From Alphaproteobacteria bacterium (lineage in GTDB: Bacteria > Pseudomonadota > Alphaproteobacteria > UBA11136): 64,000 bases of DNA. Location: positions 1,066 through 65,065 of the forward strand of contig JADHSZ010000007.1 in assembly GCA_016776635.1 (NCBI GenBank), in the 5' to 3' direction. A program made the position numbers and the translations under genes. Below the pieces are notes generated by a model. The model ran no database searches, was not told the origin of the DNA, and worked only from the letters and a program-made list of their open reading frames with translations. Each line of letters starts with the position of its first letter. Positions within the stretch are counted from its first letter, which is position 1. Shown here one piece after another: positions 1 to 21,835 of this stretch.

Positions 1-1007
1 GGCGTGTTACGGGTTCCCTGGCCAAAGCCGGAATCGGTCTCCCACTGGTTATTGATCCAGTCCTTGACGAAGGCCTTATCCTCCCAGCCGTTCTCCAGGA
101 TGATCCGTTGTATGGCCATGTGGACCACGGTATCGGTGCCGGGATCGAGGTCGATATGAAGACCCCCGTTCTCCTCGGCGAAGGCAACGCCCGCCGTGCG
201 CCGCGGATTGACCATGATGACCTTTGTCTTGTTGCCGCGGATGCCTTCGACGAACCAGCTGTTCCAGAGTACGGTCTTGGTCTCGAAAGGATCGGTGCCG
301 GAAACAAGAACGCAATCGGCAATCTTGAAGTCCTCGTGAGAGCCTCCGAAAATGTCATAACCCACATCGACCCATCCGGGCACCGAATTGACTATGGACG
401 GATGGTCGTGATGTGAGATGGCGGGGGTGTTGATGCTCTTCAGCGCCAGCCTGGTCAGCGCATAGGTGTTCTCGAAGAACTGGTAGCTAAAATACTTCAG
501 CGCCCAGGCATGCTCCCCGTGCTTGCGGATCACATGTGTGGAAACTTCAGCGGCGATGTCGAGGGCAAAATCCCAAGTCACCGGCACCAGGATGTCATTG
601 ACCCGCACCATGGGGTATTTCAAGCGGTCCTGGGTCGGTTTTTTTGGATTGTAGACTTTCTGCGCGATACAGCCGCCACGGATGCTGTGACCGCCGCGCG
701 GGTTGACGACCGTGGCTTTCGGATCGGCCACTATCACGATGTTGTGGAGTTCGCCATTGTGGACAGCCTGGGTGTACTGGTTGGGTCCGACCCAACCACC
801 CTGCAGGGGACGCAGGGGAAAGTTCAGGCCAAGGGCGTTCTCATTTTTCTTGGGCCCGCCGTCGGGACTCGTGGTCGGCCAGCGAAAGACCTTGTAGCCG
901 CAGGCCATGATGCAGTAATCGCAACATGTGGTGAAAACCTCGGCGTCTTTCGGTGGCAGAGGAGTTTTGTCTTCGGGCTGGAAAAAGGGTGTCGATTTAT
1001 TTGCCAT
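1..1007 (-). CDS. idrA: Mo-bisPGD oxidoreductase catalytic subunit of the arsenite-oxidase/iodate-reductase (AioA/IdrA) branch. N-terminal ~335 codons; the 3' end lies beyond the window start.
   Basis: Absent from the ORF track because it is truncated. My reverse translation from the ATG at 1007 (11 nt after the Rieske gene stop) gives MANKSTPFFQPEDKTPLPPKDAEVFTTCCDYCIMACGYKVFRWPTTSPDGGPKKNENALGLNFPLRPLQGGWVGP... The C-x2-C-x3-C-GY cluster motif and the ..NALGL(N/D)F.. stretch resemble AioA N-termini. Pairing with a Tat-Rieske subunit is specific to this branch. Two adjacent cytochrome c peroxidases favour Idr over Aio. Confidence 0.7.
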   Translation of the reverse strand, partial: MANKSTPFFQPEDKTPLPPKDAEVFTTCCDYCIMACGYKVFRWPTTSPDGGPKKNENALGLNFPLRPLQGGWVGPNQYTQAVHNGELHNIVIVADPKATVVNPRGGHSIRGGCIAQKVYNPKKPTQDRLKYPMVRVNDILVPVTWDFALDIAAEVSTHVIRKHGEHAWALKYFSYQFFENTYALTRLALKSINTPAISHHDHPSIVNSVPGWVDVGYDIFGGSHEDFKIADCVLVSGTDPFETKTVLWNSWFVEGIRGNKTKVIMVNPRRTAGVAFAEENGGLHIDLDPGTDTVVHMAIQRIILENGWEDKAFVKDWINNQWETDSGFGQGTRNT

Positions 1008-1018
1008 GATTATGCCCT

Positions 1019-1567
1019 CTATCCCTTCAGGTTGTCGTAGCGGCCGTAAATAAGGCCGATCATGCCAACCGCGTAGATATCGTCATTGTCGAGTTCAAGA
1101 AGAACTTGCGGAAGGCTCTCGGTGGCATGCCCGCCGATGATTATGCCGTGCCGCGTCAGGTCAAACGTGGACTGGTGGAACGAACAAGGCCCCATGGCCT
1201 GATCGGCGGGCTTATAGATGCTGGACATGTTGCCGCCCATGTGGGTGCACAGCGCGTTGAAGGCGACCACGTCGCCACCGGAACCGATACCACCGCCGGC
1301 GGGAACTCCCAACTTGACCAGAACGCTGTTGGTATTCTTCCCGTCGTCGGGATATTTGAACTTCACCGGCTTGTTCGCCTTGAGTTCACTCAACCTACCG
1401 ATCAGCATCCGCGGATAATGGGTCATCTCGGCGGCCAGGGCCTTGCCCTCCATTCCCGGTATGCCGGTAAGCACGATGGTGCCGCCGACCACGGCGCCGC
1501 CCTTGAGAAATGACCGGCGGCTGACGCAGCCGATTCCGGACTTATTTGTGTTGTCAGGGTGTTCCAT
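1019..1567 (-). CDS. idrB: Rieske [2Fe-2S] small subunit with a twin-arginine signal (AioB/IdrB-like)
   Basis: Tat motif SRRSFLKGG followed by a hydrophobic stretch. Rieske ligand boxes CTHMGG ... CSFHQSTF. Lies immediately upstream of the molybdoenzyme gene (small-then-large order, as in aioBA). Confidence 0.8.
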   Translation of the reverse strand: MEHPDNTNKSGIGCVSRRSFLKGGAVVGGTIVLTGIPGMEGKALAAEMTHYPRMLIGRLSELKANKPVKFKYPDDGKNTNSVLVKLGVPAGGGIGSGGDVVAFNALCTHMGGNMSSIYKPADQAMGPCSFHQSTFDLTRHGIIIGGHATESLPQVLLELDNDDIYAVGMIGLIYGRYDNLKG

Positions 1568-1579
1568 GAGCCTGTTTCC

Positions 1580-2809
1580 TTATTCCGTTCCGGTCGTGGC
1601 CAGATAGATTTCGAGCCCGATCCGTTTTGCTTCCGCCTGCGTCAGTTTCTCCACGCCGGGCATGGGCTCGTAGGGGGGAATCTTCGGTGTCGCCATAATG
1701 ATCTCATCACCGCTGATCTCTTCGAGAAAGACGACAAGAGCCTCTTTTTCCTCGTCACTCAGGTTCAAGGGCTTGAGAATTTTGCTCTTGTTTCCATATT
1801 CCTCCGTGAGCGCATTCTCACCGCCGCCATCGTTATAGAAGTCGATCACCTCTTCGAGAGTGAAGAACTGGCCGGCATGCATATAGGGCGCGGTATACGC
1901 CAGATAACGCAGCGGCTGGGTCCGAAATTTGCCGATATCCTGGGGCCGCTTGCTCGTGAAATAGAGGCCGAGATCGTTCTTGAAGTCCCGGTAGTACTTC
2001 TCCCTTGACCCCTTGGCGTAGAGTTCGAAACGGAAGGTGATCTCATTCATCCCGCTCTCCTCCCATTCGGGGGGACGCGGGACGCCAAGATTGTAATATT
2101 TCTGATCGCTCAGGATCGCGCCGTTATGGCATTCGATACAATTTGCCTTGCCGTTGAACAGCTTCATTCCCGCCACGGCCTGTTCGGAAAGGGCGCTCTC
2201 GTCGCCCTCCAGATAGCGGTCGAGCGGCGTGTTCATCTGTGACAGGTCGGCCCGCTCAAAGGTAGAGATAGCCCCCCAGGCATCGTTGAGGATGGGGAGT
2301 TCGGTGCCGTAGACCTCCTTGAACATCCGCACATATTCCGGAGTCTGGCGCAGGCGCTGTTCCATTACGTCCTTTTCGCCATTGCCGGAGATACCGCCGG
2401 TGGCGGCGCCCTTGGCCTGTTTTTCCAGGCTCGTCGCGCTGCCCTGCCAGAACAGCTTGCCGAGATAGCCGCTGTTGACGACGGTGTGACAGTTGCGCCA
2501 ATGAACGCCGCCGGGATAGCCGCGGCAGATGGGCTCGTCGGTGCCCCATCCCTGTTTTGGGTTGTGGCAGTCGGCGCATGAAAGACTGGCGTCACCGGTG
2601 AGCTTGGGATCGAAATAGAGCAGCTTGCCAAGCTCGGCTTTTTCCTTGGTGATCTTATTATCGGGAGGCACCGGTACCGGCGGCAACGGCGCCAGCGGCG
2701 GATCCACGTCGGGGTCGCCGGTCGCCAACGCCGGAGCGGGAGAGCCCACGGCCCAGACGGCGGCGGCTAAAACCGCCAGCAGATAGGTCCACGACCTGGT
2801 CGGATTCAT
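1580..2809 (-). CDS. Di-haem cytochrome c peroxidase (CCP/MauG family; IdrP-like by context)
   Basis: Two CxxCH haem motifs (CADCHNPKQGWG, CIECHNG). Signal peptide MNPTRSWTYLLAVLAAAVWAVGSPAPALA. I chose the ATG at 2809, preceded by GAGGAGAAGG, rather than the track start at 2878. Confidence 0.85.
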   Translation of the reverse strand: MNPTRSWTYLLAVLAAAVWAVGSPAPALATGDPDVDPPLAPLPPVPVPPDNKITKEKAELGKLLYFDPKLTGDASLSCADCHNPKQGWGTDEPICRGYPGGVHWRNCHTVVNSGYLGKLFWQGSATSLEKQAKGAATGGISGNGEKDVMEQRLRQTPEYVRMFKEVYGTELPILNDAWGAISTFERADLSQMNTPLDRYLEGDESALSEQAVAGMKLFNGKANCIECHNGAILSDQKYYNLGVPRPPEWEESGMNEITFRFELYAKGSREKYYRDFKNDLGLYFTSKRPQDIGKFRTQPLRYLAYTAPYMHAGQFFTLEEVIDFYNDGGGENALTEEYGNKSKILKPLNLSDEEKEALVVFLEEISGDEIIMATPKIPPYEPMPGVEKLTQAEAKRIGLEIYLATTGTE

Positions 2810-2825
2810 GTCCTTCTCCTCTGCT

Positions 2826-4022
2826 CTAATTGTGAACATTGAGCCAATCCTTGATGGGCTTGTATTTCTGGGGCACATTTTCCACCTTGACGGTTACAGG
2901 CGTGCTGCTGCTCAGGCTTTCGAGGAACGCCACCAGATCTTTCTTTTCCTGGTCGCCGAGGCCGAGCGGCTGAAGTTCCGTGGCAAGGGGATCGTCCTTG
3001 CCGCCGCCACCGTTGTAGAAATCGACCACATCCCCAAGTGTGGCGATCATGCCGTTATGCATGTAGGGGGCCGTGTATTTGAGCTCCCTTAAGGTCGGGG
3101 TGATGAATTTGCCGACGTCGGCATAGTCCTTGCTGACCAGGAAATAGCCCACATCACGCCGCCATATCCCCATATTGGGAACGCCGTGGTTGTGGAGAAT
3201 CGAACGGTAGGTAATGTGCCGCACCGGATCCCTGAAAATTTCCAGGTCTTCCGCCACGCCGGTGTTGTGGGGCGTGCCGTCGGAAAGATACGGGCCGTTA
3301 TGGCACTGGATGCACTTCGCCTTGCCTTCGAAAAGGGCTTGGCCCCGTTGCGCCGCGTCACTCATCTTGCCGGTGTCGAACGGCGCATCCTTGGACACCA
3401 GCGTCTTCAGAAAGGCCACCAGCGCCTTGCGGGCCTTGCCGGAGCTACATTCGCCGCCGAAGTTCTCCTGGCACATTTTCACGTAGACAGGATCCTGCTT
3501 CATGCGCTCGTGCATAATGCGCATGTCCATGTTCATGATCGCCGTCTCGGTGATCTCGTTGCGCATCACGTCGTTGAGGTTGGCCCCCATATGGCCGTCC
3601 CACGCCCAGCCCACGCTGGCGAAGTCTTCCTTGTAGGTGGTGTTGACGAGGGTCGGCGCATTGCGGAAGTGATTGGTGCCGGGATAGGCTTCGGAGAGCC
3701 GTTGCGGCTTGCCATTCTTGTCCGTGGATTTACCGAACCCCTGGGCCGGATCATGACAGAAGGCGCAACTTACGGCTCCGTCCCCAGAGATTCGCGCATC
3801 GAAGAAAAGCCGCTTGCCCATTTCGACCATGGACGCCTTGGGCGCCTTTTTCGCGGGAAGCGGCCCGATGGCTGGAACCTCGCCGACCTGCTGGATTTCG
3901 GGCGCTCCGGCCTGCTGGGTTCCGGGTGTTCCGGCCCGGTCCAGCACAGCAATGGCGATGACGACGGCAACGGCAATGGCCGCCAACACTCCCGTAGAAG
4001 CTGTAATCCTCGGCATGTTCAT
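2826..4022 (-). CDS. Di-haem cytochrome c peroxidase (CCP/MauG family; second IdrP-like paralogue)
   Basis: CAFCHDPAQGFG and CIQCHNGPY haem motifs. N-terminal TM/signal MNMPRITASTGVLAAIAVAVVIAIAVL. Start chosen at the ATG at 4022; the track start 4064 adds 14 non-signal residues. Confidence 0.85.
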   Translation of the reverse strand: MNMPRITASTGVLAAIAVAVVIAIAVLDRAGTPGTQQAGAPEIQQVGEVPAIGPLPAKKAPKASMVEMGKRLFFDARISGDGAVSCAFCHDPAQGFGKSTDKNGKPQRLSEAYPGTNHFRNAPTLVNTTYKEDFASVGWAWDGHMGANLNDVMRNEITETAIMNMDMRIMHERMKQDPVYVKMCQENFGGECSSGKARKALVAFLKTLVSKDAPFDTGKMSDAAQRGQALFEGKAKCIQCHNGPYLSDGTPHNTGVAEDLEIFRDPVRHITYRSILHNHGVPNMGIWRRDVGYFLVSKDYADVGKFITPTLRELKYTAPYMHNGMIATLGDVVDFYNGGGGKDDPLATELQPLGLGDQEKKDLVAFLESLSSSTPVTVKVENVPQKYKPIKDWLNVHN

Positions 4023-4070
4023 TTTTCGCCCCTCTCGTTCACCTGAGTTATCCACCCAGGTCATTCACGT

Positions 4071-4841
4071 TCATTTACTGGAAAAGCTGAAATCCTGCGC
4101 CACCGTTCCGCCCTCGGCGACCGTGATCTTGGCCTTCTGGACCCCGAGACGCGGATGCCATGCCTTGAGGGTGTATTTTCCGGGAGGAACGTCGCCCAGG
4201 GAGTACGAGCCATCCTCGCCGACCACCACCGCGTAGGGATGCTTGGGCACCACCATGAAGCCGAACATGAAATTGTGGGCCTCGCAGTTGATGGAGACGT
4301 AAGGAGAGCGGCGGGGCTTCAGTTGCTCCTCGATATCGCCGGGATCGGGCTGGCCGAAGTTGAACATGGTGCGTTTGACGGCGCGCCCTTTTTCGACGCC
4401 GATCATCTCACGCGCGTTGATGTTATGCAGGACACCGGCATCGCTGTTGCGGATGGTGATGGTGCCGGGCTGCACGATCTGCGCCCAGGGGCGAAAACGG
4501 CAGCCCTTCTGGTTGATGAGGTATTTGCCGTCTTTTGGCGGCGCCCATTTCTTGCCTTCCTTGACCTTGTCGAGGAAGACGAAAGCGCCCCGCAGGGTGC
4601 CGTCCTTCACGTCCACCCACACCACCTCGCGGTTGCCGGTGCCACAGACGTCCGGGTTTTTGGTAATGGGAATTTGCTCGATGGCGTCGATGGGGAGATC
4701 GCCCTCGAAGATAAGTTTTCCGGTGATACTCCCGCCATTCTTGACGTCCACTACCTTGTAGGCGGCCGCCTCCCCATCGGGAGCAAAGGCCAAGACGGTC
4801 GCCGCCACCGAAGCGGCGGCCAATACACCGATGCGTTTCAT
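4071..4841 (-). CDS. Exported cupredoxin-like protein with a C-terminal carboxypeptidase-regulatory-like beta-sandwich
   Basis: Signal peptide MKRIGVLAAASVAATVLAFA. Candidate type-1 Cu ligands ..VLHNINA.. and ..NCEAHNFMFGFM.. (H, C-x2-H-x2-M). C-terminal GSYSLGDVPPGKYTLKAWHPRLG is typical of CarboxypepD_reg-like folds. The domain call is by eye only. Confidence 0.55.
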   Translation of the reverse strand: MKRIGVLAAASVAATVLAFAPDGEAAAYKVVDVKNGGSITGKLIFEGDLPIDAIEQIPITKNPDVCGTGNREVVWVDVKDGTLRGAFVFLDKVKEGKKWAPPKDGKYLINQKGCRFRPWAQIVQPGTITIRNSDAGVLHNINAREMIGVEKGRAVKRTMFNFGQPDPGDIEEQLKPRRSPYVSINCEAHNFMFGFMVVPKHPYAVVVGEDGSYSLGDVPPGKYTLKAWHPRLGVQKAKITVAEGGTVAQDFSFSSK

Positions 4842-4911
4842 GAATTCCCCTCCCCCTTATTCTTTAGTTGTTCTTTATCTTCGATACGTGGTTTTCATCT
4901 TCCGCGAGACC

Positions 4912-5163
4912 TTAGCGCTCCCGCCTCCTTGTTTTCGGCTTCATGTGCTTCACACCTCCGAGCGGTGAAGCGGAAGACGCCGACGACAGCGGTGTGCCGG
5001 CGACGCTCTCCAGAAACCCTTCCAGTTCACCGAGATTCTTGAAATATTTTTCCTGACTCCCTTGAACATGCCGAACATGACCTCGCCATATGAGCTCCTC
5101 GTCTGGTTCTCCTTCCAACCAAATACGCGCCACGAACGAGTTCCTGGTCCCCATTCCAGCCAT
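4912..5163 (-). CDS. Small hypothetical protein; the first gene downstream of the TGACAC repeat region
   Basis: The segment MGTRNSFVARIWLEGEPDEELIWRGHVRHVQGSQEKYFKNLGELEGFLESVAG looks protein-like, while the rest of the 127-aa track ORF does not. Start (5163 or 5154) uncertain, with no strong RBS. Confidence 0.35.
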   Translation of the reverse strand: MAGMGTRNSFVARIWLEGEPDEELIWRGHVRHVQGSQEKYFKNLGELEGFLESVAGTPLSSASSASPLGGVKHMKPKTRRRER

Positions 5164-5220
5164 TCCATTCCGCAACAGCGCTACTCTCGCGTCCCCTTGC
5201 CTTCTCCACCGGGAGACAGA

Positions 5221-5385
5221 TGACACCCTGTCTCCACCTCCTCCAAAAAAGTTATGGGCCTCAGGTAACACATGCCAATGACACGGCGGTGACACAGTGA
5301 TTAATGGGTCTTTACCAATTGTTTTTACAGAGAAAAATTAGATCGTCATCATTGTAGTGACACAAAAATGACACGCCGATGACAC
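5221..5385 (-). promoter_or_regulatory. Array of six perfect TGACAC hexamers (GTGTCA on the coding strand); candidate operator for the adjacent SARP-type regulator
   Basis: TGACAC starts at 5221, 5279, 5290, 5358, 5369 and 5380. The 5279/5290 pair and the 5358/5369/5380 trio are spaced exactly 11 bp. Degenerate copies (TCACAC 5415, TGACCT 5436, TGACCC 5452) follow. The array lies between the regulator stop (5635) and the first downstream ATG (5163). Confidence 0.5.
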
Positions 5386-5634
5386 CGTTTCCGGGTGTTT
5401 CAACGGCGGAAAAATCACACCAAAATCTGGAAAAATGACCTATTGCAGAAATGACCCGATTGCGACTGTGCGCGGGTCAAAGAGTTGGGAAAAACCAAGC
5501 CGTATCGGAGACATTTCCCGCAGACGGTGCCCTCCCGGCCAGCGGAAGCGGGACCAGCGCCCGTATCTGATCGGCTTATGCCCGGGCCTTAAGGAAGCCG
5601 CGGCCGGATGGAGAACCCATCCGTTGGCAACCCG

Positions 5635-6852
5635 CTAGGGTAACGAACCGGCGGCGTGGTCCGCGTCACCCTTAAGGGAAGCGCCGGAGAGAGCTTTCTC
5701 TCCATTTCCGAGAAGCTCTTGGTAGAGGCGTAACGTCTCGGGCGTAGGCTCCAGGCCGAACTCTTCGGCAAGCACATGCTGCCATTTCTGGAACTGGGCC
5801 TCCACCAAATCATATCGTCCGAGGCGGGCTAGGTATCCGATGAGGCTCTGGAAAAAGCTCTCGCGGCAGGGCTCACGGAAAAGCGCGATACGACAAATCT
5901 GCGCCGCCTCCAGCAGGTCGCCCTGCTCGGCATGACATCGCGCCAGGCCACCCATTACTTCCAGATGGATTTCGAGCAACCGCTCCCGTTCTTCCGCCCA
6001 CCAATCCGCATAAGGGTCGCCTTCCAGAAAATCCCCGCGGTAGAGGCGTCTGGCGTTATCGAATCGCGTCAAGGCTTCCGTAATCCTTCCCTCTTTTTCC
6101 AACTCCCTGCCTTCGAAGGCGAGTTTCTCGAAGGTATCCGCATCGACCCAAACCGCATCGCGCCTCAGAAGATACGACTTATCGACCGTTTCCACCACTT
6201 CTTCCCTCAGCCCGCCGTCGCGCAACTGTTTGCGCAAAAAGCTGATGACGACCTTGAGCCGCTCCCATCCGGAAGTCATGTCGGCATCGGGCCACAGATA
6301 TTCGATAAGGCGTTCGCGGTGAAGGGGCCGGCCAAGATGGGTGACCAGGCATTTCAACAGGTCCACCGCCTTCCTGCGTTTCCACTTATCGGCAGCCAGG
6401 CCCTCGCCGGCGACGCTCAGACAGAAATGCCCAAGCGTGTAGATGCGCAGAGGCGTCGATACCAGGGGTTCCTTGAGCGCCAACCCGGCCTCGTGGAGGA
6501 AAACCACCACCATGGCGTCGCCATCGGAGCGATACTCGCTCTCGGCTGGCATGACCAAGGTGCTGATGGCCGCTGACATCATTTCTCCGTTCTTATGGCG
6601 GAGCCGGCAGGACTGAACCGACCATGGTTCACCACGCATGAAACACGACATCCCCTGGCATGAAGCCGAACAAAGGGGTTCGCCGCTGGAATAGACAGCC
6701 TGGAGGACGTCGCCGCAGTGTCGACCGGTCGCCTCGCCCGGCGTGTATCCCAGCAACCCCTCGGCGCCACTGTTCCAGCCGACGATATTCATCTTCTCGT
6801 CAATGGCGATCGCCGCTTCCGACGAAAACCGCACCAGATCAATAGCATGCAT
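5635..6852 (-). CDS. Transcriptional activator: N-terminal PAS domain, OmpR/SARP-type winged helix and BTAD domain
   Basis: PAS-like N-terminus (AIAIDEKMNIVGWNSGAEGLLGYTPGEATGRHCGDVL). The SARP DNA-binding region is LRIYTLGHFCLSVAGEGL..WKRRKAVDLLKCLVTHLGRPLHRERLIEYLWPD. The BTAD-like helical repeat region is ..YRGDFLEGDPYADWWAEERERL...LARLGRYDLVEAQFQKWQHVLAEEFGLEPTPETLRLY. Confidence 0.75.
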   Translation of the reverse strand: MHAIDLVRFSSEAAIAIDEKMNIVGWNSGAEGLLGYTPGEATGRHCGDVLQAVYSSGEPLCSASCQGMSCFMRGEPWSVQSCRLRHKNGEMMSAAISTLVMPAESEYRSDGDAMVVVFLHEAGLALKEPLVSTPLRIYTLGHFCLSVAGEGLAADKWKRRKAVDLLKCLVTHLGRPLHRERLIEYLWPDADMTSGWERLKVVISFLRKQLRDGGLREEVVETVDKSYLLRRDAVWVDADTFEKLAFEGRELEKEGRITEALTRFDNARRLYRGDFLEGDPYADWWAEERERLLEIHLEVMGGLARCHAEQGDLLEAAQICRIALFREPCRESFFQSLIGYLARLGRYDLVEAQFQKWQHVLAEEFGLEPTPETLRLYQELLGNGEKALSGASLKGDADHAAGSLP

Positions 6853-7294
6853 TATGTTTTATCCCTGCCAAGTCAGTTACACACGGGTTTCACTACGTCA
6901 CCTAACCTCCATGGCGTCAAGAGGCTGGCTTGCGCGACACGGGATAACCGATGGAACTTGCCCTTTAGCGTAAATGACCCGCCGCAAGAGTGAAAAACCG
7001 CGGATATCCAGGAGTCTCCGCGAGTCTCCGTGAATAAAACCGGAAAAAAGCGCCGGGGAGGCGATGAAACTACACATATCCGGGTATTTAACTGCGACAA
7101 TTAGCCGCGTATCTCGCCGGCAGGATTGAATCGACCGGGTGTCGCGGCCCGGGGTGGGGTTACGAAACTGGAGGATTATCAGGACCGCCTCAAGAAGGAA
7201 GAGGGTAAGGACTGAATTGGAACCGAGTTCGCAGATGTTCCCGGTTTCATTGGAACCGATTTTTTGCCCAATCCTCTGTAACCCTTGATTCCCT

Positions 7295-7340
7295 TGGGGG
7301 GCGCACGGGGATTCGAACCCCGGACCCGCTGATTAAGAGT
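7295..7340 (-). repeat. Displaced 3' half of tRNA-Lys (CCA end through the anticodon loop); island-distal att direct repeat
   Basis: tggggggcgcacggggattcgaaccccggacccgctgattaagagt is 44/46 identical to 26169-26214 in the intact tRNA-Lys. The two differences fall in the T-loop (TTCGAAT versus TTCGAGC). Confidence 0.9.
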
Positions 7341-7440
7341 TAGGAGATACGAAATTCCTCCATATTCCCCTATATTCCTAATACATTGTAATATATCACT
7401 TAATATGAAATTATCATTGCGTAAGATTCCCATAATTTCC

Positions 7441-7486
7441 TTGAATGTGCTTCCTAGTGCTCCCTATAATAGGTCTAGGAAGCACA
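7441..7486 (+). promoter_or_regulatory. Putative integrase promoter with a flanking 12-bp perfect inverted repeat
   Basis: -35 TTGAAT (7441-7446), an 18-nt spacer, then a perfect TATAAT (7465-7470). The inverted repeat is tgtgcttcctag (7446-7457) / ctaggaagcaca (7475-7486). It lies 16 nt upstream of the int ATG at 7502. Confidence 0.45.
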
Positions 7487-7501
7487 CTTGGAAGCCTTAT
7501 C

Positions 7502-8707
7502 ATGCCAACAATCAAGCTGACAAAACGCAAGATAGACACACTCAAACCCGGCCCCAAAGACGTGTTTTATTGGGATGCTGAGATTAAAGGCTTCGGCCTC
7601 AAGGTCACCCCCAAGGGTAAGAAAACGTTCCTTGTTCAATACCGACCGGGTGGACGACATACGCCCACCAGAAAAGTCTTCATTGGGCCATACGGCAAGG
7701 TTACGCCCCACAAGGCACGGAGGGAGGCCACACGCTTTTTAGGGCTGGTTGCCGATGGAAAAGACCCTGCACTTGAAAAGCGTCAGGCACGGCAGCGGGC
7801 AATTACAGATCGCCTTTCCGACGTTGTTGAAGAATTTCTGAAAAAACACGCCGCCAAGAACAGGTCCGTTAAGGAAGTCGAGCGAATCTTCCGACACGAT
7901 GTCATCCCGGAATGGGAAAAACGCAGCATTCATGACATCGGAAAGCGAGACATCATCCACCTTGTTGAGAAGATTGAAGGCAGAGGGGCTCCGGTAATGG
8001 CTAAACGCCTCCTTGCCCATCTTAGAAAATTTTTCAACTGGTGTGTATCGCGTGACTACCTGCAAGTCTCCCCCTGCTCAGGGGTGGCGACATCATATCG
8101 TGAGAAAGCCCGTCATCGCGTGCTCACCGATGATGAACTCGTGGATATCATCAATGCCGCTCGCCAGATCGGCGGGATATACGGAGGGATTGTTCAGTTG
8201 CTCGTCTATACGGCCCAACGCCGAGCAGAAGTTTCAGAACTCCGCTGGGAGGAACTGGACCTGGACCAGAGCCTTTGGACCCTGCCTGGAGAGCGAACAA
8301 AAAATGGAAAGCCGCATTTTATCCACCTGTCCGAACAGGCCATGGAAGTATTAAAAGACATACCGAAAGTGGGGGAGTTCGTTTTTACGACAAATGGGCG
8401 TACGCCTTTCAGCGGTTTTTCAAAAGCGAAACGTCAGCTGGATGAACTCAGTACCGTTTCAGACTGGCGCCTTCACGACATCCGCCGGACAGCGACGACG
8501 GGAATTGCCCATCTCGGCATCCCTCCCCACATCGCCGACAAGGTTCTGAACCATCAGGGTGGAACCATCTCCGGCGTCGCAGCGGTTTACCAGCGTCACG
8601 ATTTCCTTGAAGAACGAAAGACTGCTCTTGATGCATGGGGGAACTATGTTCAGTCTTTGCTTGACGAAACTGACCGGGATAACGTCGTGAATATCCACGA
8701 AGGGTAA
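7502..8707 (+). CDS. int: Tyrosine recombinase / P4-type integrase with an N-terminal arm-binding (DUF4102-like) domain
   Basis: MPTIKLTKRKIDTLKPGPKDVFYWDAEIKGFGLKVTPKGKKTFLVQYR is a typical DUF4102 start. Catalytic region ..RRAEVSELRW.., ..HDIRRTATT.., ..LNHQGG..AAVYQRHD (R..HxxR..Y). Start moved from 7445 to the ATG at 7502. Confidence 0.9.
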   Translation: MPTIKLTKRKIDTLKPGPKDVFYWDAEIKGFGLKVTPKGKKTFLVQYRPGGRHTPTRKVFIGPYGKVTPHKARREATRFLGLVADGKDPALEKRQARQRAITDRLSDVVEEFLKKHAAKNRSVKEVERIFRHDVIPEWEKRSIHDIGKRDIIHLVEKIEGRGAPVMAKRLLAHLRKFFNWCVSRDYLQVSPCSGVATSYREKARHRVLTDDELVDIINAARQIGGIYGGIVQLLVYTAQRRAEVSELRWEELDLDQSLWTLPGERTKNGKPHFIHLSEQAMEVLKDIPKVGEFVFTTNGRTPFSGFSKAKRQLDELSTVSDWRLHDIRRTATTGIAHLGIPPHIADKVLNHQGGTISGVAAVYQRHDFLEERKTALDAWGNYVQSLLDETDRDNVVNIHEG

Positions 8708-8767
8708 GATTACCCTTGTCGGGAACACACCCCGCCCCCTCCGGGTGGTGGAAGGAAGGTAAAGAAG

Positions 8768-9196
8768 TTGCCAGACTATCCAAGTTGGTTGACGGATGAG
8801 GTGGATAAGATGCTTCTCAGTGAAGCGAATGCCGACGGATTTTATGAGGCACTTCAACAACTCCCCGACCATACCCAGAATCTCATTAGAGAAGTCCTGA
8901 CCCGGAGGAACAATATCGAATCACGTCAGGGCCATCGAGGCTCTCCTGCATCAGATATCAATGCCCTTTATCCCACTGTCTTATTTCTTATCCTGAATGG
9001 GCTATCTGCCAATGAAGCGTGGACGTTAATTCAAGATAAAATTCCGGGGCGAGACTCAAAGAACGCAAACCGCCAGCTGAACCGCGCCAGAAGCGAGATT
9101 GAAAAGACGCTCCATACCGCCTCCAGCTCTATCGTGGCAGGCAATCCAAGCCGGTTTCGGACAGCCTACAAAAACCTCCAAAAACTTCTCGAATAG
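8768..9196 (+). CDS. Hypothetical island protein
   Basis: 142-aa ORF with a TTG start preceded by GGAAGGAAGG. AT-rich codon usage like the rest of the island. No motif recognised. Confidence 0.5.
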   Translation: MPDYPSWLTDEVDKMLLSEANADGFYEALQQLPDHTQNLIREVLTRRNNIESRQGHRGSPASDINALYPTVLFLILNGLSANEAWTLIQDKIPGRDSKNANRQLNRARSEIEKTLHTASSSIVAGNPSRFRTAYKNLQKLLE

Positions 9197-9630: not shown

Positions 9631-11232
9631 ATGACCGAATTTGACAGGCTCGAGAACCTTCCCGTGATTCCAGTCGGGCATGCGGGAACCAAGACGTTCT
9701 TCTATTTCGTCCGAAGTACCCGCCAAATCGTAGCCTTGACGTGGAGAAGCCATACTCAAAACCAGTTTCTCGCTATGGCTGAGGAAGCCGATTGGCTTCA
9801 CTATGGCCGCATCCGACTGATTCATGGCTCCATTGATTGGAGTGCATTGGCCGAAAGCCTAATGGCCCATTGCCGAGAAGAGGGCATATACGATCCCTCG
9901 CTCACACGTGGCCGTGGAGCCTGGCGCGACGATAACAGCATCATCTACCACGCCGGTGACACCTTATATGTGAATGGCAAGCGCACACAATTCGAAGCCT
10001 TCACCAAAACCAAATATCGCTATCTCGGTGCGCTCAAAACCACCCATCCAGCCCAAGATGCAGCCACAATTGGAGATTGCGAGGAACTGCTGTCATTCAT
10101 AGAAACTTGGGGTTGGGAATGGCCGGTTCTCGCACCTAAAATTATTCTTGGATGGATTGGTTGTGCTTTGATTTGCGGCGCACTCAAATGGCGTCCTCAT
10201 CTCTGGATAACGGGAACCAAGGGTAGTGGCAAAAGCACCCTGGACGGCTTAATAGCCAGCATTCTGGGGGACCTAGCCGTACATGTCCAAGGCAGTACGA
10301 CTGAACCAGGTCTTCGTCAGGTCCTTAACGGTGATGCCCGTCCAGTTCTATTCGATGAGTTTGAAGCCGAGAACAGCAATGCAAAGGCCGTTATCGACGC
10401 CGCCCGTTCTGCTGCCAGCGATAACGCCGCTCCAGTCGTCAAAGGCACACCAGAAGGAAAGCCGATATTCTACAAACTCCGATTTGCAGCAATGTTTTCC
10501 GGCATCATCGCCAATGTCCAACGAGACGCCGATAAATCCCGCATGGTTATCCTCGAAATGCATCCTCTCAGGCGGGATGAGAACCAGCGAAGACGTTTAA
10601 TCATTGGTCTGGACCGCTTTGCCAACGATTTCGGGCCTAGGCTATTACGGCGAATGCTGGATTCCCTCACGAATGGTAAGTTCGACGACGCCCTCTTAAC
10701 TCTATTAACGGCAATCCGTCTAGAGGGTGGAGATGAACGGAAAGCTGATGTTTTTGCTCATCTACTTGCGGCCAACCACGTTCTAATCCGTGATGATGTG
10801 CTCACCGAAAACGAAGCCAGAGCACAAGCGGCCTTAATCACCGAACTGGATGTGGATGAACCATCTGACGAGGAAGCCTGTCTTTCCCATCTCATCGGTC
10901 ATCGCGTCACGGTGGACTACGGATACACCCGAACCTTAGGAGAATGGCTAATCAATATCCATGAAGACAAGCCCTCTGGCCCAACAGCCGATGCGGTTCG
11001 TATGGAACTCGAAAGGCATGGCGTGAAGACCGAAGGGAACACAATCAAGGTCGCCAACGCAACATTAGGAATCAAGGCTATCTACGCTGGCACCCGCTGG
11101 GCCAACGGTTCACATTGGCGCATCCTCCACCGCCTACCAAGGGCTAGGGCAGGAGGCAACGCTAGGTTCGCTGGTGACCAGAGCAAATGTACGGTCATCC
11201 CGTGGAACACGATGATGCCGGTCGAGGAGTGA
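9631..11232 (+). CDS. P-loop NTPase, putative island replication helicase (SF3 / P4-alpha / DUF927-like)
   Basis: Walker A ITGTKGSGKSTL. Walker B PVLFDEFEAEN. Motif-C-like AMFSGIIANVQ. ..GRGAWRDD..IYHAGD.. lies upstream. The position (int-alpA-helicase) is typical. Family assignment is by eye. Confidence 0.6.
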   Translation: MTEFDRLENLPVIPVGHAGTKTFFYFVRSTRQIVALTWRSHTQNQFLAMAEEADWLHYGRIRLIHGSIDWSALAESLMAHCREEGIYDPSLTRGRGAWRDDNSIIYHAGDTLYVNGKRTQFEAFTKTKYRYLGALKTTHPAQDAATIGDCEELLSFIETWGWEWPVLAPKIILGWIGCALICGALKWRPHLWITGTKGSGKSTLDGLIASILGDLAVHVQGSTTEPGLRQVLNGDARPVLFDEFEAENSNAKAVIDAARSAASDNAAPVVKGTPEGKPIFYKLRFAAMFSGIIANVQRDADKSRMVILEMHPLRRDENQRRRLIIGLDRFANDFGPRLLRRMLDSLTNGKFDDALLTLLTAIRLEGGDERKADVFAHLLAANHVLIRDDVLTENEARAQAALITELDVDEPSDEEACLSHLIGHRVTVDYGYTRTLGEWLINIHEDKPSGPTADAVRMELERHGVKTEGNTIKVANATLGIKAIYAGTRWANGSHWRILHRLPRARAGGNARFAGDQSKCTVIPWNTMMPVEE

Positions 11233-11243
11233 TGCTCAGGCAA

Positions 11244-11409
11244 AACTGTCCCAACTGTCCCGCTACCGTACCGACCACACCCATTGATTACCTTAGGCTT
11301 GGGACAGATGGGACGGTTGGGACAGGAGAATAAGAAGAAGATTGAATCGAATAGATAGGGAGTCAAACTTCAGTAGTTTCTCTCTTCAGAGTGTACCGAT
11401 TGTCCCAAG
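11244..11409. repeat. Iteron-like 9-mer cluster directly downstream of the helicase-like gene
   Basis: AACTGTCCC x2 in tandem (11244-11261). In opposite orientation: TTGGGACAG, ATGGGACGG, TTGGGACAG in tandem (11299-11325). A further TTGTCCCAAG (11400-11409) is flanked by GTGTACCG x2. Confidence 0.6.
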
Positions 11410-11465
11410 TGTACCGGGATGACACACAGGCATCGGAAAAACCATAAAATCTCAACACTTCCCTG

Positions 11466-12026
11466 CTAAAAGGCGCCAATTTTTTCCGCAGCCCTCCACC
11501 ATGAACTGCTTTTATCATCAAGAAACTTTTTTAATTTTCCCATACACGTAGAATTATCCATCAATTGTCTAATTTCTGGGTTGGCATCAAAATTAAAGAA
11601 TTTTATAGCGTTCCACCCTACCAGCTCTAAACTTCTCTCCTCACCGAGAGCTAGCCTATCGTCCTGGTATTGTATGTTTTCAAGAATAGAGCTCACTGTT
11701 GTTTTCATCGCTTCTCCAGTCGGCTCCTGCAGTCGTTGTTTCAATGCCCTAATAGATTCCGAGCCAATATCTCTCGCAAGCTCTTCGTCAAACTTATATT
11801 TAACTTTAATTAACTCGAAGCTGAATAAAGCAGAGAGTAAAACCAAATCAGGTGGAGCTGCGTTGATAACTTCCGCACTCCTTTCCGCTTCAACGTCCTC
11901 ATCCATTAACAACTGTAAGATTAATTGAACAAATTCTTTGTATGAGTTTTCCGTCTCTTCTACCATTGCTTCGACAAATTTGTCCGCCGCTCTTTTGATT
12001 TTCCCGCGCCTTCCAAACCCAAGCAT
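11466..12026 (-). CDS. Hypothetical cytoplasmic protein (helical, acidic)
   Basis: 186-aa ORF in island-type codon usage. No signal peptide and no recognised motif. Confidence 0.5.
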   Translation of the reverse strand: MLGFGRRGKIKRAADKFVEAMVEETENSYKEFVQLILQLLMDEDVEAERSAEVINAAPPDLVLLSALFSFELIKVKYKFDEELARDIGSESIRALKQRLQEPTGEAMKTTVSSILENIQYQDDRLALGEERSLELVGWNAIKFFNFDANPEIRQLMDNSTCMGKLKKFLDDKSSSWWRAAEKIGAF

Positions 12027-12086
12027 CGCGCCCTCCCATTTTACCTTCTAGAAGTTATGAGCACCTACTACAGCGTGTTTGGAAAA

Positions 12087-12239
12087 CTATTCTGACTTAT
12101 TCGAGTTTTGCGCGAACGCAACCACCGTAATCATCCCCATACAACCTAAAACAACCCAACCAACAGTCCCCCATGAGATGACATCAAAAAAGGCCAGTAT
12201 TATTGAAACTCCCGTCACCGCTGATGCCAATTGAGCCAT
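12087..12239 (-). CDS. Possible 50-aa membrane peptide
   Basis: Below the track cutoff. My translation is MAQLASAVTGVSIILAFFDVISWGTVGWVVLGCMGMITVVAFAQNSNKSE, preceded by GGAGGAGATA. It lies downstream of the 12288-12563 membrane protein on the same strand. Confidence 0.35.
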   Translation of the reverse strand: MAQLASAVTGVSIILAFFDVISWGTVGWVVLGCMGMITVVAFAQNSNKSE

Positions 12240-12287
12240 TATCTCCTCCTATCTGTCTAATTATGGAAAGTGTAGGAACCACACACT

Positions 12288-12563
12288 TCACTGATACCAA
12301 AGGTAAAATAACCAAGGGAGAAATTCGCTTGGATCCTGAATCATTACATAAATTCCATACGGCCATACAGCCCCACGAAGGAATGCAAAAAATACCCCTA
12401 GAGCAAAGCCTATAATCGAAGTGCCAAACCCAAGGTTCCAAAAGGCACCAGGACCAAATCCATAATAGACCGCGGCTGAACACATGCTTATGGAGGCGAT
12501 ACCAGCCCCAATAAGAAAGTATGCCGTAGCAATATTGCCAATTAGAGATTTTTGTTCAGTCAT
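12288..12563 (-). CDS. Small integral membrane protein
   Basis: MTEQKSLIGNIATAYFLIGAGIASISMCSAAVYYGFGPGAFWNLGFGTSIIGFALGVFFAFLRGAVW has 2-3 hydrophobic helices. Start moved to the ATG at 12563. Confidence 0.5.
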   Translation of the reverse strand: MTEQKSLIGNIATAYFLIGAGIASISMCSAAVYYGFGPGAFWNLGFGTSIIGFALGVFFAFLRGAVWPYGIYVMIQDPSEFLPWLFYLWYQ

Positions 12564-12600
12564 CCTGCCCCCCCCCAACATCACCCCTGTTTAAATAAAA

Positions 12601-13149
12601 TCACCTAGTAGGCTTAACAGAGTTATCCAGAAAATTCTCCATTGTGGCTGATGGAGAAAGCGATGCTGGCTCACCAACAGCGACCATCATCGTTGATCTC
12701 TGGCCTAAATACATCCGCGCTTGAAATGCAGCATTTATCTGCTCTCCCGCCTCAACAAGAACACGCCTACCAATCATCCTTAGCGTCACATGATTACCTT
12801 GCTCTTCCCAATACATTTGCGAGTTTTTAAGATTAGTCATCTTTAGCCACTCGGCCATAGCCCACTCGGCCATTTTTTGCTTCTGGCTCGTCGTAGCATC
12901 TGGAGTTAACCGAAACGAAGTATCACATTGGGCAACAAATAATCGGCCAGAGCGATTGTCTCCAGCCTGCACCATATAGGTATTGGAATACAGATCATTG
13001 CCCAACGCCTGGACAACCTTCTTTACGGATGGCCGAAATGGAAAATCGACTTTGAACTCGCATTCTTTGTTAGAAAATTCAAACGCAAGTGATTCGCCGG
13101 AAATAATGGTCCCAAGCAAGATAAGTGTAATAACCCCGAACAACTGCAT
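12601..13149 (-). CDS. Exported hypothetical protein
   Basis: N-terminal signal-like MQLFGVITLILLGTIISGESLA. 182 aa. No motif recognised. Confidence 0.5.
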   Translation of the reverse strand: MQLFGVITLILLGTIISGESLAFEFSNKECEFKVDFPFRPSVKKVVQALGNDLYSNTYMVQAGDNRSGRLFVAQCDTSFRLTPDATTSQKQKMAEWAMAEWLKMTNLKNSQMYWEEQGNHVTLRMIGRRVLVEAGEQINAAFQARMYLGQRSTMMVAVGEPASLSPSATMENFLDNSVKPTR

Positions 13150-13470
13150 AACTGCAAATCCACTCCCTAGGGTGTGTGTGTCTCCGACCTGCAGCCAACA
13201 GTAAGCCCCCTAGGGCCAACAAGTCATTTATTATTGAGCCGCTAGCATCGCCGTTTTCGAGGTGCACACGTATAACCGTATAACTTTCAGCCCATTTCCG
13301 ATAACCAGAACGTCTGAAAGCACCTAAACCTCAACAGAGATTCCGGTAATTGCTCCCTAATCCGGAAATTCAGGGGGAAAACTGGTAAAAAATAGTAAAA
13401 GTTACACGTGATTTGGGGTGGGCTAGTGTGTGCTGTTTTGTCCCGAAGGGACACGCCGTAAGATGGTGAA

Positions 13471-14141: not shown

Positions 14142-14819
14142 CTAGAATCTCGCTCCTAGCACAGCAAGGCCGGAGAAATTCCTAAATTCAACATCTGCAC
14201 TGAATAGCGTCGCGTCCGTTAGGAAGTAGGAACCTCTTGCTCCAATGTAGACCCTATCCGTGATGTCGTAGTCCCCACCAAGAAAGACCTGTCCAGCAAA
14301 ATTAGTATCACTATCATCTGCAGAACCAGTAGCCTGAAAAGTTGTCCCGTTAACGGTAACGGTAACACCGGCACTAATATCAGCGGAGGATTTTGCGAAG
14401 CCAATACCGCCCCCGATGTAAGGGTGAAATTTTGCGTTGAACAGTTTCCCCTTGTTATCACGAAGAGCAGCATTAACGAGAAACGCATCAATTTCGGGAT
14501 CAATATCAAGAAATCCCGTCAGAGTAGCGTTGAGAAAGGTCGCCGATGCAGTTTCACTGTAGTCCGAGTCCTGAAGACGAAGATATTGCAGCCCAAGGGA
14601 CAGGTTCTCATGAAAAGCATTATCAACCCAGAGACCCAAGCCTAGAGCCAGGCCAGTATCCGTATCGAGATCATCGGTGACACCCGCAAACTCGACCTCG
14701 GGGTCTCCTCCATGAAATCCCAACTCGAATTCAGCCCTTATATCTTTAGCTTGCACAAAATGTGTGTTTGCCGCGAAGGCCACAAAAAATAGTGCGGGGA
14801 GCAGGTAATTATATTTCAT
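14142..14819 (-). CDS. Small outer-membrane beta-barrel protein (OmpA-N/OmpW-like porin family)
   Basis: Signal peptide MKYNYLLPALFFVAFAANTHFVQA. Alternating hydrophobic beta-strand pattern, Gly/aromatic rich. C-terminal ...LAVLGARF ends in Phe, as in OMP sorting signals. Start moved to the ATG at 14819. Confidence 0.65.
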   Translation of the reverse strand: MKYNYLLPALFFVAFAANTHFVQAKDIRAEFELGFHGGDPEVEFAGVTDDLDTDTGLALGLGLWVDNAFHENLSLGLQYLRLQDSDYSETASATFLNATLTGFLDIDPEIDAFLVNAALRDNKGKLFNAKFHPYIGGGIGFAKSSADISAGVTVTVNGTTFQATGSADDSDTNFAGQVFLGGDYDITDRVYIGARGSYFLTDATLFSADVEFRNFSGLAVLGARF

Positions 14820-15038
14820 AGGCTTATTAATTATTAAGCGCCTAGTTGTAACCACCTATGGTGGCATGCGGCACATACCATTAATACCTAAAATATATAA
14901 AGGTGATCTTTTTTTTCGAGGGTGTGTCCAACAAAGCACAGCACCTAACGGGGTCAGGCCAAGTCGGAACTAACACAAATGAACAACTTTCTGCGGTCAC
15001 GATTTCATACCAGTGGGTATCCTGCTAAGCTAGTTTCT

Positions 15039-15302
15039 ATGAATCGTCTGCTGTACATTCCCTGCACTGCTGCTGCTGCTGTTGTTCTTCTTATTGGATG
15101 CTCGACTTATGGCCCCTACACCGGGTCCTCTACCTATGGAGGCGGTGATGCGAATGGCGTGACAGTGTATAAAACCATCCATAGCACTCAAGATCAGGTG
15201 GATACGGAGGCGGTGCTTCATTGCAAGAAATTTAACAAAGTGTCACGCCAACTAAGCTGCAGCGATATTCTAGTAAATAGTTGCACCTATGTTTGCGAGT
15301 AG
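15039..15302 (+). CDS. Small lipoprotein
   Basis: MNRLLYIPCTAAAAVVLLIGCSTYG contains the lipobox LLIGC. 87 aa with four further Cys. Confidence 0.45.
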   Translation: MNRLLYIPCTAAAAVVLLIGCSTYGPYTGSSTYGGGDANGVTVYKTIHSTQDQVDTEAVLHCKKFNKVSRQLSCSDILVNSCTYVCE

Positions 15303-15446
15303 CCTGCCGGAAAAAAAATACCGAGATGGCCAACTCAGTGTGAAGCTTGGCTTGTACACTAAGTGCTTTTATTCACTAATTTGAAACTGCGAGCGTCGGC
15401 CGGCCATTAATTAGGCCAGCCACGCAGCTAAGCAAAGCCTGCTTGA

Positions 15447-17401: not shown

Positions 17402-17459
17402 GATGTCAATAAATGCGAGATTAAAGCCCTCTGTTTTTCGGTGCCGTCTCAGCTCCCGC

Positions 17460-18215: not shown

Positions 18216-18216
18216 T

Positions 18217-18351: not shown

Positions 18352-18352
18352 T

Positions 18353-21818: not shown

Positions 21819-21835
21819 TCTTCACACAGATCTTC

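Follow-up and report, generated by a model that had tools for sequence, protein, structure and literature searches.

A dissimilatory iodate reductase-type (idr) gene cluster and its accessory genes in an uncultured marine alphaproteobacterium

Introduction

The first 6,852 nucleotides of the DNA analysed here, a 64,000-nt stretch of contig JADHSZ010000007.1 from an uncultured alphaproteobacterium (hereafter the window), encode a molybdoenzyme together with a Rieske-type small subunit and two cytochrome c peroxidases. The locus raises the question of whether this enzyme is an arsenite oxidase (Aio), the name under which its relatives stand in the databases, or a dissimilatory iodate reductase (Idr), and by which route electrons would reach it. 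The original prediction, made from the sequence alone, had argued for idr and against arsenite oxidase, and the tree of the catalytic subunit (bootstrap 100), the Idr-type residues and the gene order described below all support it. The window carries the 5' two-thirds of an idr operon from an uncultured marine alphaproteobacterium. Our reading of its function, to which we give a probability of roughly 0.8, is that a periplasmic IdrAB reduces iodate while the peroxidases IdrP2 and IdrP1 clear peroxide or reactive iodine by-products; this model of IdrAB and its peroxidases is taken from PMC8692401 and PMC13455634.

An idr cluster is a kind of system that is already known. Such clusters were described in marine genomes in 2021 (PMC8692401), and a 'new clade' from metagenome-assembled genomes (MAGs) of oxygen minimum zones (OMZs), with two clusters expressed in Escherichia coli, followed in 2026 (PMC13455634). 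What appears to be new is the fixed architecture around the core, which comprises a cupredoxin, a HEAT-repeat protein and a bd-like membrane module of the type found beside nitrite oxidoreductase (NXR), joined in a few loci by a SARP-family regulator and a small open reading frame (ORF).

Results and Discussion

Core genes and their order

The idr-type cluster lies on the minus strand at window positions 1-6852, and the genes that had been described there are all present. Its core consists of the following four genes:

1-1007, minus strand: 5' part of idrA, the first 335 of 896 codons (Pfam Rieske_3 for the 3Fe-4S domain, Pfam Molybdopterin, TIGR02693)
1019-1567, minus strand: idrB, Rieske [2Fe-2S] small subunit carrying a signal for twin-arginine translocation (Tat) (TIGR02694)
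1580-2839, minus strand: second di-haem cytochrome c peroxidase, in the idrP1 position, 419 aa (CCP_MauG)
2826-4022, minus strand: first di-haem cytochrome c peroxidase, in the idrP2 position, 398 aa (CCP_MauG)

The translation of 1-1007 reads MANKST...TTCCDYCIMACGYKVFRWP...NALGLNF..., and the catalytic gene continues beyond window position 1, as had been noted at the outset. Fifteen public contigs encode the Rieske protein, and one of them, the European Nucleotide Archive contig L001, which shows 0 mismatches to the window across 11,567 nt and reaches about 9 kb past window position 1, supplies the complete catalytic subunit of 896 aa (L001 positions 10561-13251). This IdrA is of the molybdenum bis(pyranopterin guanine dinucleotide) (Mo-bisPGD) type, with an N-terminal 3Fe-4S domain and without a signal peptide. 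IdrB scores 116.9 bits with TIGR02694 (cut-off 95.65), next to 115.7 bits for the IdrB of Azonexus and 231.7 bits for the AioB of NT-26, and it has the twin-arginine signal SRRSFLKG and the Rieske motifs CTH...CSFH. Profile matches and translation thus confirm the Tat-Rieske small subunit followed by an AioA-like catalytic subunit that had been read from the sequence. The pair of paralogous di-haem peroxidases is confirmed as well, with two CxxCH motifs in each protein and a mutual identity of 37%; the second peroxidase has a Sec signal and the haem motifs CADCH and CIECH, and the first has an N-terminal signal or anchor and the haem motifs CAFCH and CIQCH.

All of these genes had been placed on one strand with spacers of 6-16 nt. 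The common strand holds, and the spacers are 11 nt between the Rieske and catalytic genes and 12 nt between the second peroxidase gene and the Rieske gene; the two peroxidase genes overlap by 14 nt, and the cupredoxin gene upstream of them is separated from the first peroxidase gene by 48 nt if that gene begins at its signal-peptide start or by 6 nt with the longest ORF. The tight linkage of the regulator does not hold, as a gap of 793 nt lies between it and the cupredoxin gene.

The order peroxidase-peroxidase-Rieske-catalytic is the physical order idrP2-P1-B-A published for both Pseudomonas sp. SCT and Denitromonas IR-12 (PMC10989891), and the plasmid locus of Azonexus hydrophilus NCP973 (L087) likewise reads peroxidase-peroxidase-small-large. 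The association with peroxidases, which had been taken as the mark of an idr locus, is therefore found in the same form as in SCT, IR-12 and Azonexus. More broadly, the same four core genes in the same order are shared with the IdrP2P1BA systems of Pseudomonas sp. SCT, D. iodatirespirans IR-12, Azoarcus sp. DN11 and Azonexus NCP973 (Yamazaki 2020; Reyes-Umana 2021, PMC8692401; PMC13455634). The export signals agree too, Tat being confined to the Rieske subunit and Sec found on the peroxidases. In our scan of genomes for relatives, which takes in the best 80 of at least 585 loci, two peroxidase genes accompany the small and catalytic subunit genes in 78 of the 78 loci with enough upstream contig, and a single one of these (L038) departs from the order by having its peroxidases after the catalytic gene. 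The two peroxidases are orthologous by position to the pair in the window in 84 of 84 loci.

The catalytic subunit: Idr or Aio

The complete window IdrA is 58% identical to the proteins of Labrenzia and Moritella, 52% to that of Azonexus NCP973 and 26-30% to AioA (29% to NT-26), and a large set of marine-bacterial proteins shows 56-61% identity to it. Azonexus hydrophilus NCP973 belongs to the five dissimilatory iodate reducers that have been isolated (PMC13455634), and Labrenzia alba, Moritella dasanensis and Ruegeria halocynthiae are idr carriers listed in Table S3 of Reyes-Umana et al. (PMC8692401). The proteins of Azonexus and Labrenzia are only 51% identical to each other, so that the window protein, at 58%, stands nearer to the marine clade than does Azonexus, the isolate, at 51%.

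A neighbour-joining tree of 104 sequences was built from Kimura distances over 888 columns with 100 bootstraps and rooted on AioA, for which NT-26, pSinA, Thermus HB8 and others served as the comparison set. The peroxidase-linked Idr-like proteins are monophyletic with respect to AioA (bootstrap 100) and separated from it by a long stem. Their first split divides a clade of Azonexus, Sedimenticola and Sulfurivermis (bootstrap 100) from the remainder (bootstrap 93), and the window protein falls within a 25-member subclade of its own (bootstrap 100) whose sister is the marine clade that holds Labrenzia, Ruegeria, Moritella and SAR324 (bootstrap 100 for that clade, 54 for the weak sister relation). 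This topology nests the window protein in the Idr crown group. The 335 residues encoded in the window suffice for the same outcome, as Idr-like monophyly and the window subclade were both recovered with them in 50 of 50 bootstrap replicates.

Profile scores point in the same direction. With a profile hidden Markov model (HMM) of Idr built without the window subclade, the window protein scores 1481 bits and AioA 353-408 bits; Azonexus and Labrenzia, both in the training set, score 1493 and 1773 bits. With the Aio model the window protein scores 396 bits, Azonexus 436, Labrenzia 449 and AioA 1393-1628. The Idr model used here is a surrogate and distinct from the IdrA HMM of Reyes-Umana et al., which has a threshold of 640.

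Inspection of individual residues gave a consistent picture. Forty-two positions that differ from the AioA consensus are at least 97% conserved in the Idr-like sequences, and the window protein keeps them; D201, R444 and the missing Glu of the NSE motif are among these positions. Where AioA has the active-site motif IHNRPAYNSE, the window protein reads SHHDHPSIVNS, in which the His is kept, the Asn is replaced by Asp (D201) and the Glu is lost; in a second motif, GGHQEG of AioA is GGHQRG (R444), which is the Idr pattern. We take the arsenite-binding set of AioA to be His195, Glu203, Arg419 and His423 (Alcaligenes faecalis numbering). The window protein does not reproduce this set: its His200, Arg438 and His442 are common to AioA, and the Glu is replaced, as it is in at least 97% of the Idr-like proteins. 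The 3Fe-4S site (C29, C32, C36 and S108) is conserved.

The surroundings of that site differ within the family. An extra cysteine, Cys28 (window 924-926), precedes the first 3Fe-4S ligand and gives the sequence TTCCDYC in three of the three subclade members inspected; five IdrA proteins of other clades that were inspected read T/S-T-A-CDYC at this site. The serine that replaces the fourth 3Fe-4S ligand in AioA persists in the subclade members with TTCCDYC.

A classical arsenite oxidase AioBA is what the automatic name 'arsenate reductase (azurin) large subunit' would make of this locus, and the two enzymes do have much in common. As in the enzymes of A. faecalis (1G8K) and NT-26 (4AAY), a Rieske subunit is paired with a 3Fe-4S/Mo-bisPGD subunit, the small subunit gene precedes the large and export is by Tat; the best matches in the PDB are AioA, which also has the 3Fe-4S cysteines and the three residues His200, Arg438 and His442, the small subunit clears the TIGR02694 cut-off, and the full protein scores 385.8 bits with TIGR02693, above its equivalog cut-off of 359.05. 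On that same model, however, AioA scores 1468-1500 bits, and the IdrA of Azonexus (425.6 bits) and those of Moritella (402.3) and Labrenzia (447.3), both listed as idr carriers, fall at 402-447 bits, like the window protein. An arsenite oxidase is further contradicted by the identity of only 26-30% and the bootstrap-100 long stem between the two groups, by the replacement of the Glu of the NSE motif and of GGHQEG, and by the presence of two peroxidases instead of aioXSR, cytC and moeA. None of aioXSR, cytC or moeA/glp was found among the cluster neighbours in the window and L001, and the aio loci of NT-26 and pSinA do show the aioXSR/cytC/moeA context. On the strength of identity, tree, signature residues and gene context we reject arsenite oxidase as extremely improbable. 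The database names have a simple origin: the four Idr-type proteins scored lie just above the TIGR02693 cut-off (386-447 bits), which explains why 'arsenate reductase (azurin) large subunit' or 'arsenite oxidase' is the name given to the gene of Azonexus NCP973 and to about 20 of the closest relatives.

The original prediction had proposed that the full catalytic subunit be placed in a phylogeny and its active-site residues be checked. In the neighbour-joining tree the protein groups with the Idr-like proteins, including Azonexus IdrA, and away from AioA, and its active site has the Idr-type signature HHDHPS...NS plus GGHQRG. Placement in the Idr family is supported at the level of sequence by the tree, the signatures, the profile scores and synteny. 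In the field, an idr locus is operationally defined by membership of the IdrA clade and adjacent peroxidases (PMC8692401); the window has both, and it is therefore an idr locus by that definition.

Accessory genes and the downstream membrane module

Upstream of the core the window contains the following features:

4071-4841, minus strand: X256, exported two-domain putative copper protein of 256 aa, a predicted cupredoxin (alignments, AlphaFold2 model, Foldseek)
4842-5634: gap of 793 nt between the regulator and cupredoxin genes
4912-5163, minus strand: small conserved ORF of about 83 aa (synonymous-site conservation, tblastn)
5265-5385, minus strand: two sets of GTGTCAY heptamer repeats, candidate SARP sites and promoter region (pattern search)
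5635-6852, minus strand: regulator of the SARP family with PAS, OmpR-type winged-helix and BTAD domains (PAS, Trans_reg_C, BTAD)

Contig L001 adds the genes that follow idrA outside the window:

L001 13339-15663, directly after idrA: cytoplasmic HEAT/PBS-lyase-like repeat protein, 774 aa
L001, downstream of idrA: cytochrome c, 104 aa
L001, downstream of idrA: bd-like protein, 708 aa, about 14-16 hydrophobic helices
L001, downstream of idrA: membrane-anchored di-haem cytochrome c, 348 aa
L001, downstream of idrA: membrane-anchored mono-haem cytochrome c, 321 aa
L001, downstream of idrA: NxrC-like protein with two cytochrome c domains and an EB_dh haem-b domain (Pfam EB_dh)

The distribution of these genes was counted over loci with enough flanking sequence. 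The window subclade has the cupredoxin in 13 of 13 loci, against 10 of 63 in the other Idr clades, the HEAT-repeat protein in 12 of 12 against 21 of 61, and the bd-like protein in 9 of 9 against 8 of 54; the PAS-SARP regulator occurs in 1 of 11 and 2 of 56, respectively. The suggestion that the cupredoxin and the regulator are new accessory components therefore holds well for the cupredoxin (13/13) and weakly for the regulator (1/11 and 2/56).

The comparison with known idr loci can be made more specific. At the Azonexus locus a sensor kinase and a sigma-54 regulator lie upstream and a soluble cytochrome c and moaA downstream; the window locus has instead the PAS-SARP regulator, the small ORF, the cupredoxin, the HEAT-repeat protein and the bd-like/cytochrome c/NxrC-like module, and its IdrA, although in the same monophyletic group and with the same signature residues, is 52% identical to that of Azonexus and belongs to a separate subclade. 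The marine idr loci (Roseobacter group, Labrenzia/Roseibium, Pseudovibrio, Moritella and SAR324; Reyes-Umana 2021 Table S3, Kine 2024 in PMC11445184, and OMZ MAGs in PMC13455634) have the same core order, encode IdrA proteins 57-61% identical to that of the window and likely form the sister clade. The HEAT gene after idrA (21/61) and the bd-like/cytochrome c module (8/54, mostly with the cupredoxin) also occur among them, so that the accessory genes are optional in the marine clades and fixed in the window subclade.

The bd-like/cytochrome c module adjoins idr in nine loci of other subclades. In six of them (L031, L036, L055, L067, L079 of SAR324, and L038) the genes form one block in the order cupredoxin, bd-like protein, cytochrome c, cytochrome c, and L051 shows the same cupredoxin-bd-like start before its contig ends. 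The position of the cupredoxin gene directly 5' of the bd-like gene in six other-clade loci indicates that the cupredoxin is functionally part of the module; in the window subclade the cupredoxin gene stands at the head of the operon, and in the other clades downstream with the bd-like gene.

Only the first 130 or so residues of the bd-like protein match CydA (Pfam Cyt_bd_oxida_I; PDB 5doq, E = 3e-8). A counterpart by type is found in the NXR clusters of Kuenenia, Nitrospira and Nitrospina, where a bd-like oxidase is conserved together with cytochromes c of the mono-haem and di-haem kinds, with cupredoxins and with an alternative NxrC; Lucker et al. proposed that this set may act like alternative complex III (PMC3578206). 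The same types of parts stand here beside a periplasmic enzyme of the DMSO-reductase family, and the bd-like proteins are alike in having at least 14 helices and a CydA match confined to the first 130 or so residues; the likeness drawn here is one of parts list. NXR itself is a type II enzyme with an FeS beta subunit, whereas the partner here is a Rieske-type Idr.

In the literature collection searched we found no paper that ties the bd-like module or the cupredoxin to iodate reduction, a match on cold-seep nitrogen loss being judged unrelated by its title, and no discussion of the HEAT-repeat protein in the idr papers that we read. The latter could be an assembly or maturation factor.

The cupredoxin X256

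The first 200 residues of X256 have no match to Pfam, NCBIfam or PDB profiles, and only the C-terminal domain, a CarboxypepD_reg-like beta-sandwich, was matched. Predicted ligands of a type-1 copper site are H139, C186, H189 and M192, the last three in a C-x2-H-x2-M motif. Two alignments, of 24 and 66 members, show no variation at C186, H189 and M192; H139 is likewise invariant among the 24 members and reaches at least 90% conservation among the 66. The full ligand pattern, HN...47 residues...C-x2-H-x2-M, is one that we take to be that of amicyanin-type type-1 copper. An AlphaFold2 model built with the 66-sequence alignment has a predicted local distance difference test score (pLDDT) of 94.1, and the top Foldseek matches to it in the PDB are all cupredoxins (amicyanin, Nitrosopumilus purple cupredoxin, Cupredoxin_1, pseudoazurin and plastocyanin) with probability 1.00 and target-normalised TM-scores of 0.6-0.7. 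The N-terminal part of X256 is thus predicted, from the model, to have a cupredoxin fold with a copper site, and the conserved H/C/H/M set and the amicyanin-like model substantiate the earlier description of a cupredoxin-like exported protein. The family is large, with 2,555 representative clusters at E <= 1e-10.

Leader, regulator and transcription

The original prediction had passed over the contents of the 793-nt gap, which holds a conserved small ORF and repeated GTGTCAY heptamers. Three heptamers stand at an exact period of 11 nt at 5357-5385, and a second set at 5265-5295 consists of a pair and a third copy, GTGTTAC, 13 nt further. The repeat pattern has three matches in the 64 kb, all in this gap, where 0.03 would be expected; it is conserved in L007, the 95%-related locus, and has one further match in L051. 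Direct repeats of a heptamer one helical turn (11 nt) apart are the classical layout of a SARP operator. The 11-nt spacing makes the adjacent PAS-SARP protein, whose PAS and BTAD domains were found as predicted, together with Trans_reg_C, the likely activator of the cluster. Orthologs of this regulator occur only in L007 (87%), L021 (52%) and L067 (47%) among the loci compared. Its PAS domain (residues about 42-72, window 6640-6730) has five cysteines in about 30 residues, HCGDV...PLCSASCQGMSC..., which are kept in L007 and could form a redox-, metal- or oxidant-sensing site.

The small ORF at 4912-5163 is the first gene after the candidate promoter region and carries the motif FVARIWLEG...WRGHVRHVQG..YF.NL..FLE. 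It has no Pfam match; comparison with L007 shows conservation at the protein level with synonymous changes, and tblastn detects homologs directly 5' of the first peroxidase gene in L007, L031, L036, L051 and L067, which belong to two subclades. An Rfam scan of window positions 1-9000 revealed no molybdenum cofactor (Moco) riboswitch in the 793-nt leader, its only match being a sub-threshold tRNA-like hit that corresponds to an attachment-site (att) fragment.

The locus is present in marine metagenomes. Two metatranscriptome assemblies from one study contain contigs that are 100% identical to it; in this search, which covered the window part of the locus, they span idrA, idrB, both peroxidase genes, the cupredoxin gene, the leader with the small ORF and the regulator gene, which suggests that the cluster is transcribed in situ.

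Proposed mechanism and alternatives

It is proposed that the Tat signal of IdrB would carry the signal-less IdrA along into the periplasm, where the IdrAB heterodimer would reduce IO3- at its molybdenum centre to HIO and on to I-. Electrons would pass from a cytochrome c or copper carrier to the Rieske [2Fe-2S] cluster of IdrB, then to the [3Fe-4S] cluster of IdrA and to molybdenum, and IdrP2 and IdrP1 would clear away H2O2 or further reactive by-products. The quinol pool may be linked to IdrAB through the bd-like/cytochrome c/NxrC-like module, the cupredoxin acting as shuttle, and the PAS-SARP regulator may bind the 11-nt-spaced GTGTCAY heptamers upstream of the small ORF and drive expression. 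What the analysis shows is the gene content, the placement in the family, the signature residues, the conserved architecture, the cupredoxin fold and the occurrence of the locus in metatranscriptome assemblies; which substrate is used, which way electrons flow, what the module does and what the regulator targets are what we infer.

For the iodate-reducing isolates, current models assume a route through the bc1 complex and soluble cytochrome c. For the window subclade we tentatively put forward, as somewhat short of an even chance, a self-contained iodate respiration independent of bc1, in which IdrAB would work with its own quinol-oxidising membrane complex, composed of the bd-like protein, the anchored di-haem and mono-haem cytochromes c and the NxrC-like haem-b protein, the cupredoxin would be the shuttle and PAS-SARP and the heptamers would provide control.

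Several observations weigh against these proposals. We know of no member of the window subclade that reduces iodate, unless Fu_MAG_99, an OMZ cluster tested by heterologous expression (PMC13455634), belongs to it. The IdrA proteins of Pseudomonas sp. SCT, D. iodatirespirans IR-12 and R. azorensis stand outside the tree, so that Azonexus NCP973 and the listed idr carriers provide the link to validated enzymes; the tree is a neighbour-joining and not a maximum-likelihood one, and the position of the marine clade as sister has weak support (bootstrap 54). Identities of 52-58% allow for a shifted range of substrates. No sigma-70 consensus promoter above chance was found on the coding strand, and the metatranscriptome contigs are assembled and without strand information, with DNA carry-over possible. 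The role given to the module would follow by analogy from the proposal for NXR clusters, which is equally unproven, and the bd-like family is without the canonical quinol-binding Q-loop (PMC3578206).

A further possibility is that the enzyme, though of Idr type, acts on another substrate, such as a different halogen or chalcogen oxyanion, or runs in the oxidising direction and passes electrons into the chain by way of the NXR-type module. In its favour, the subclade stands apart (bootstrap 100) and is only 52-58% identical to the compared Idr clades, of which only one sequence comes from an iodate-respiring isolate; it has the clade-specific extra cysteine (TTCCDYC against TACDYC); its module is always present and is otherwise known beside nitrite oxidoreductase, an oxidising enzyme; and the closest characterised cousin, Aio, is an oxidase. 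Nevertheless, the window protein keeps the 42 positions that separate Idr from AioA, and both peroxidases are retained as positional orthologs, which fits the reactive by-products of iodate reduction. The block of bd-like protein and cupredoxin also stands beside idr of the marine clade (L031, L036, L055 and L067, and L079 of SAR324), and the module is therefore not exclusive to the window subclade. Moreover, idr clusters of Alphaproteobacteria and SAR324 from OMZs conferred iodate reduction on E. coli (PMC13455634). We consider a different substrate or direction unlikely.

Even if iodate is the substrate, its reduction might serve as an electron sink or for detoxification under oxygen limitation and not conserve energy, an alternative that partly overlaps with iodate reduction by IdrAB as proposed above. 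R. azorensis and other aerobic marine Alphaproteobacteria with idr reduce iodate only in static, oxygen-limited culture, and a role of this kind is discussed by the authors of that work (PMC11445184). The host here is likewise a marine alphaproteobacterium. On grounds of plausibility, a fixed multi-subunit module with several cytochromes c seems more than a sink would need, and a purely non-conserving role strikes us as rather improbable.

Genomic setting

The idr genes have a host-like G+C content of 56-60%, next to 60-63% in the core genes mreBC, PBP2, leuA and ilvBC. The idr regulator gene is adjoined by an 18.9-kb island of 44-51% G+C, against about 60% elsewhere, with a tyrosine integrase gene at 7445-8707. 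The island is flanked by a 62-nt direct repeat (7282-7343 and 26156-26217, 87% identical) that corresponds to the 3' part of a tRNA-Lys(CTT), encoded at 26169-26244. L007 lacks the island; the tRNA-bounded repeat and this absence indicate a separate mobile element, of the classical tRNA-integrated kind, inserted beside the idr cluster. Its cargo at 14142-23760 includes an outer-membrane-protein (OMP) beta-barrel, VWA-domain, MotA/ExbB-like and TPR proteins and a 689-aa protein with PEGA and FGE-sulfatase domains. Several island ORFs are without a family match (for instance 9631-11232, 533 aa), and an HNH endonuclease is encoded within the island at 24691-25473.

L007, the nearest genome, is a Rhodospirillaceae MAG with an IdrA 95% identical to that of the window. 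At L007 positions 200-3828, 5' of the regulator gene, lie genes for one more di-haem peroxidase, the third, for a sensor histidine kinase of the dCache type and for a receiver protein that stands alone. The island now occupies that position in the window, and the original regulatory neighbourhood may lie partly beyond the tRNA-Lys gene or have been lost.

Elsewhere in the window, a permuted two-piece transfer-messenger RNA (tmRNA) with the tag peptide ANDNQIALAA is encoded at 48195-48542; permuted tmRNA is typical of Alphaproteobacteria, and together with the nearest genome it points to an alphaproteobacterial host. The window subclade as a whole consists of marine and groundwater MAGs assigned to Alpha-, Gamma- and Betaproteobacteria, Phycisphaerales, Entotheonella and others.

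Implications

Reduction of iodate to iodide in low-oxygen seawater controls iodine speciation and hence the emission of iodine to the atmosphere, and idr genes are a marker with which iodate reducers can be mapped. With Idr-type genes carrying arsenite oxidase names, surveys of the arsenic cycle probably over-count and surveys of the iodine cycle under-count. If the module is the entry point of electrons, iodate respiration would proceed in these organisms without the bc1 and soluble cytochrome c route of current models. The bd-like module of nitrite oxidisers, unexplained so far, could then be illuminated through Idr: if our proposal is true, the module would serve periplasmic molybdoenzymes as a portable electron-transfer cassette, and with Idr it could be studied in a genetically simpler setting.

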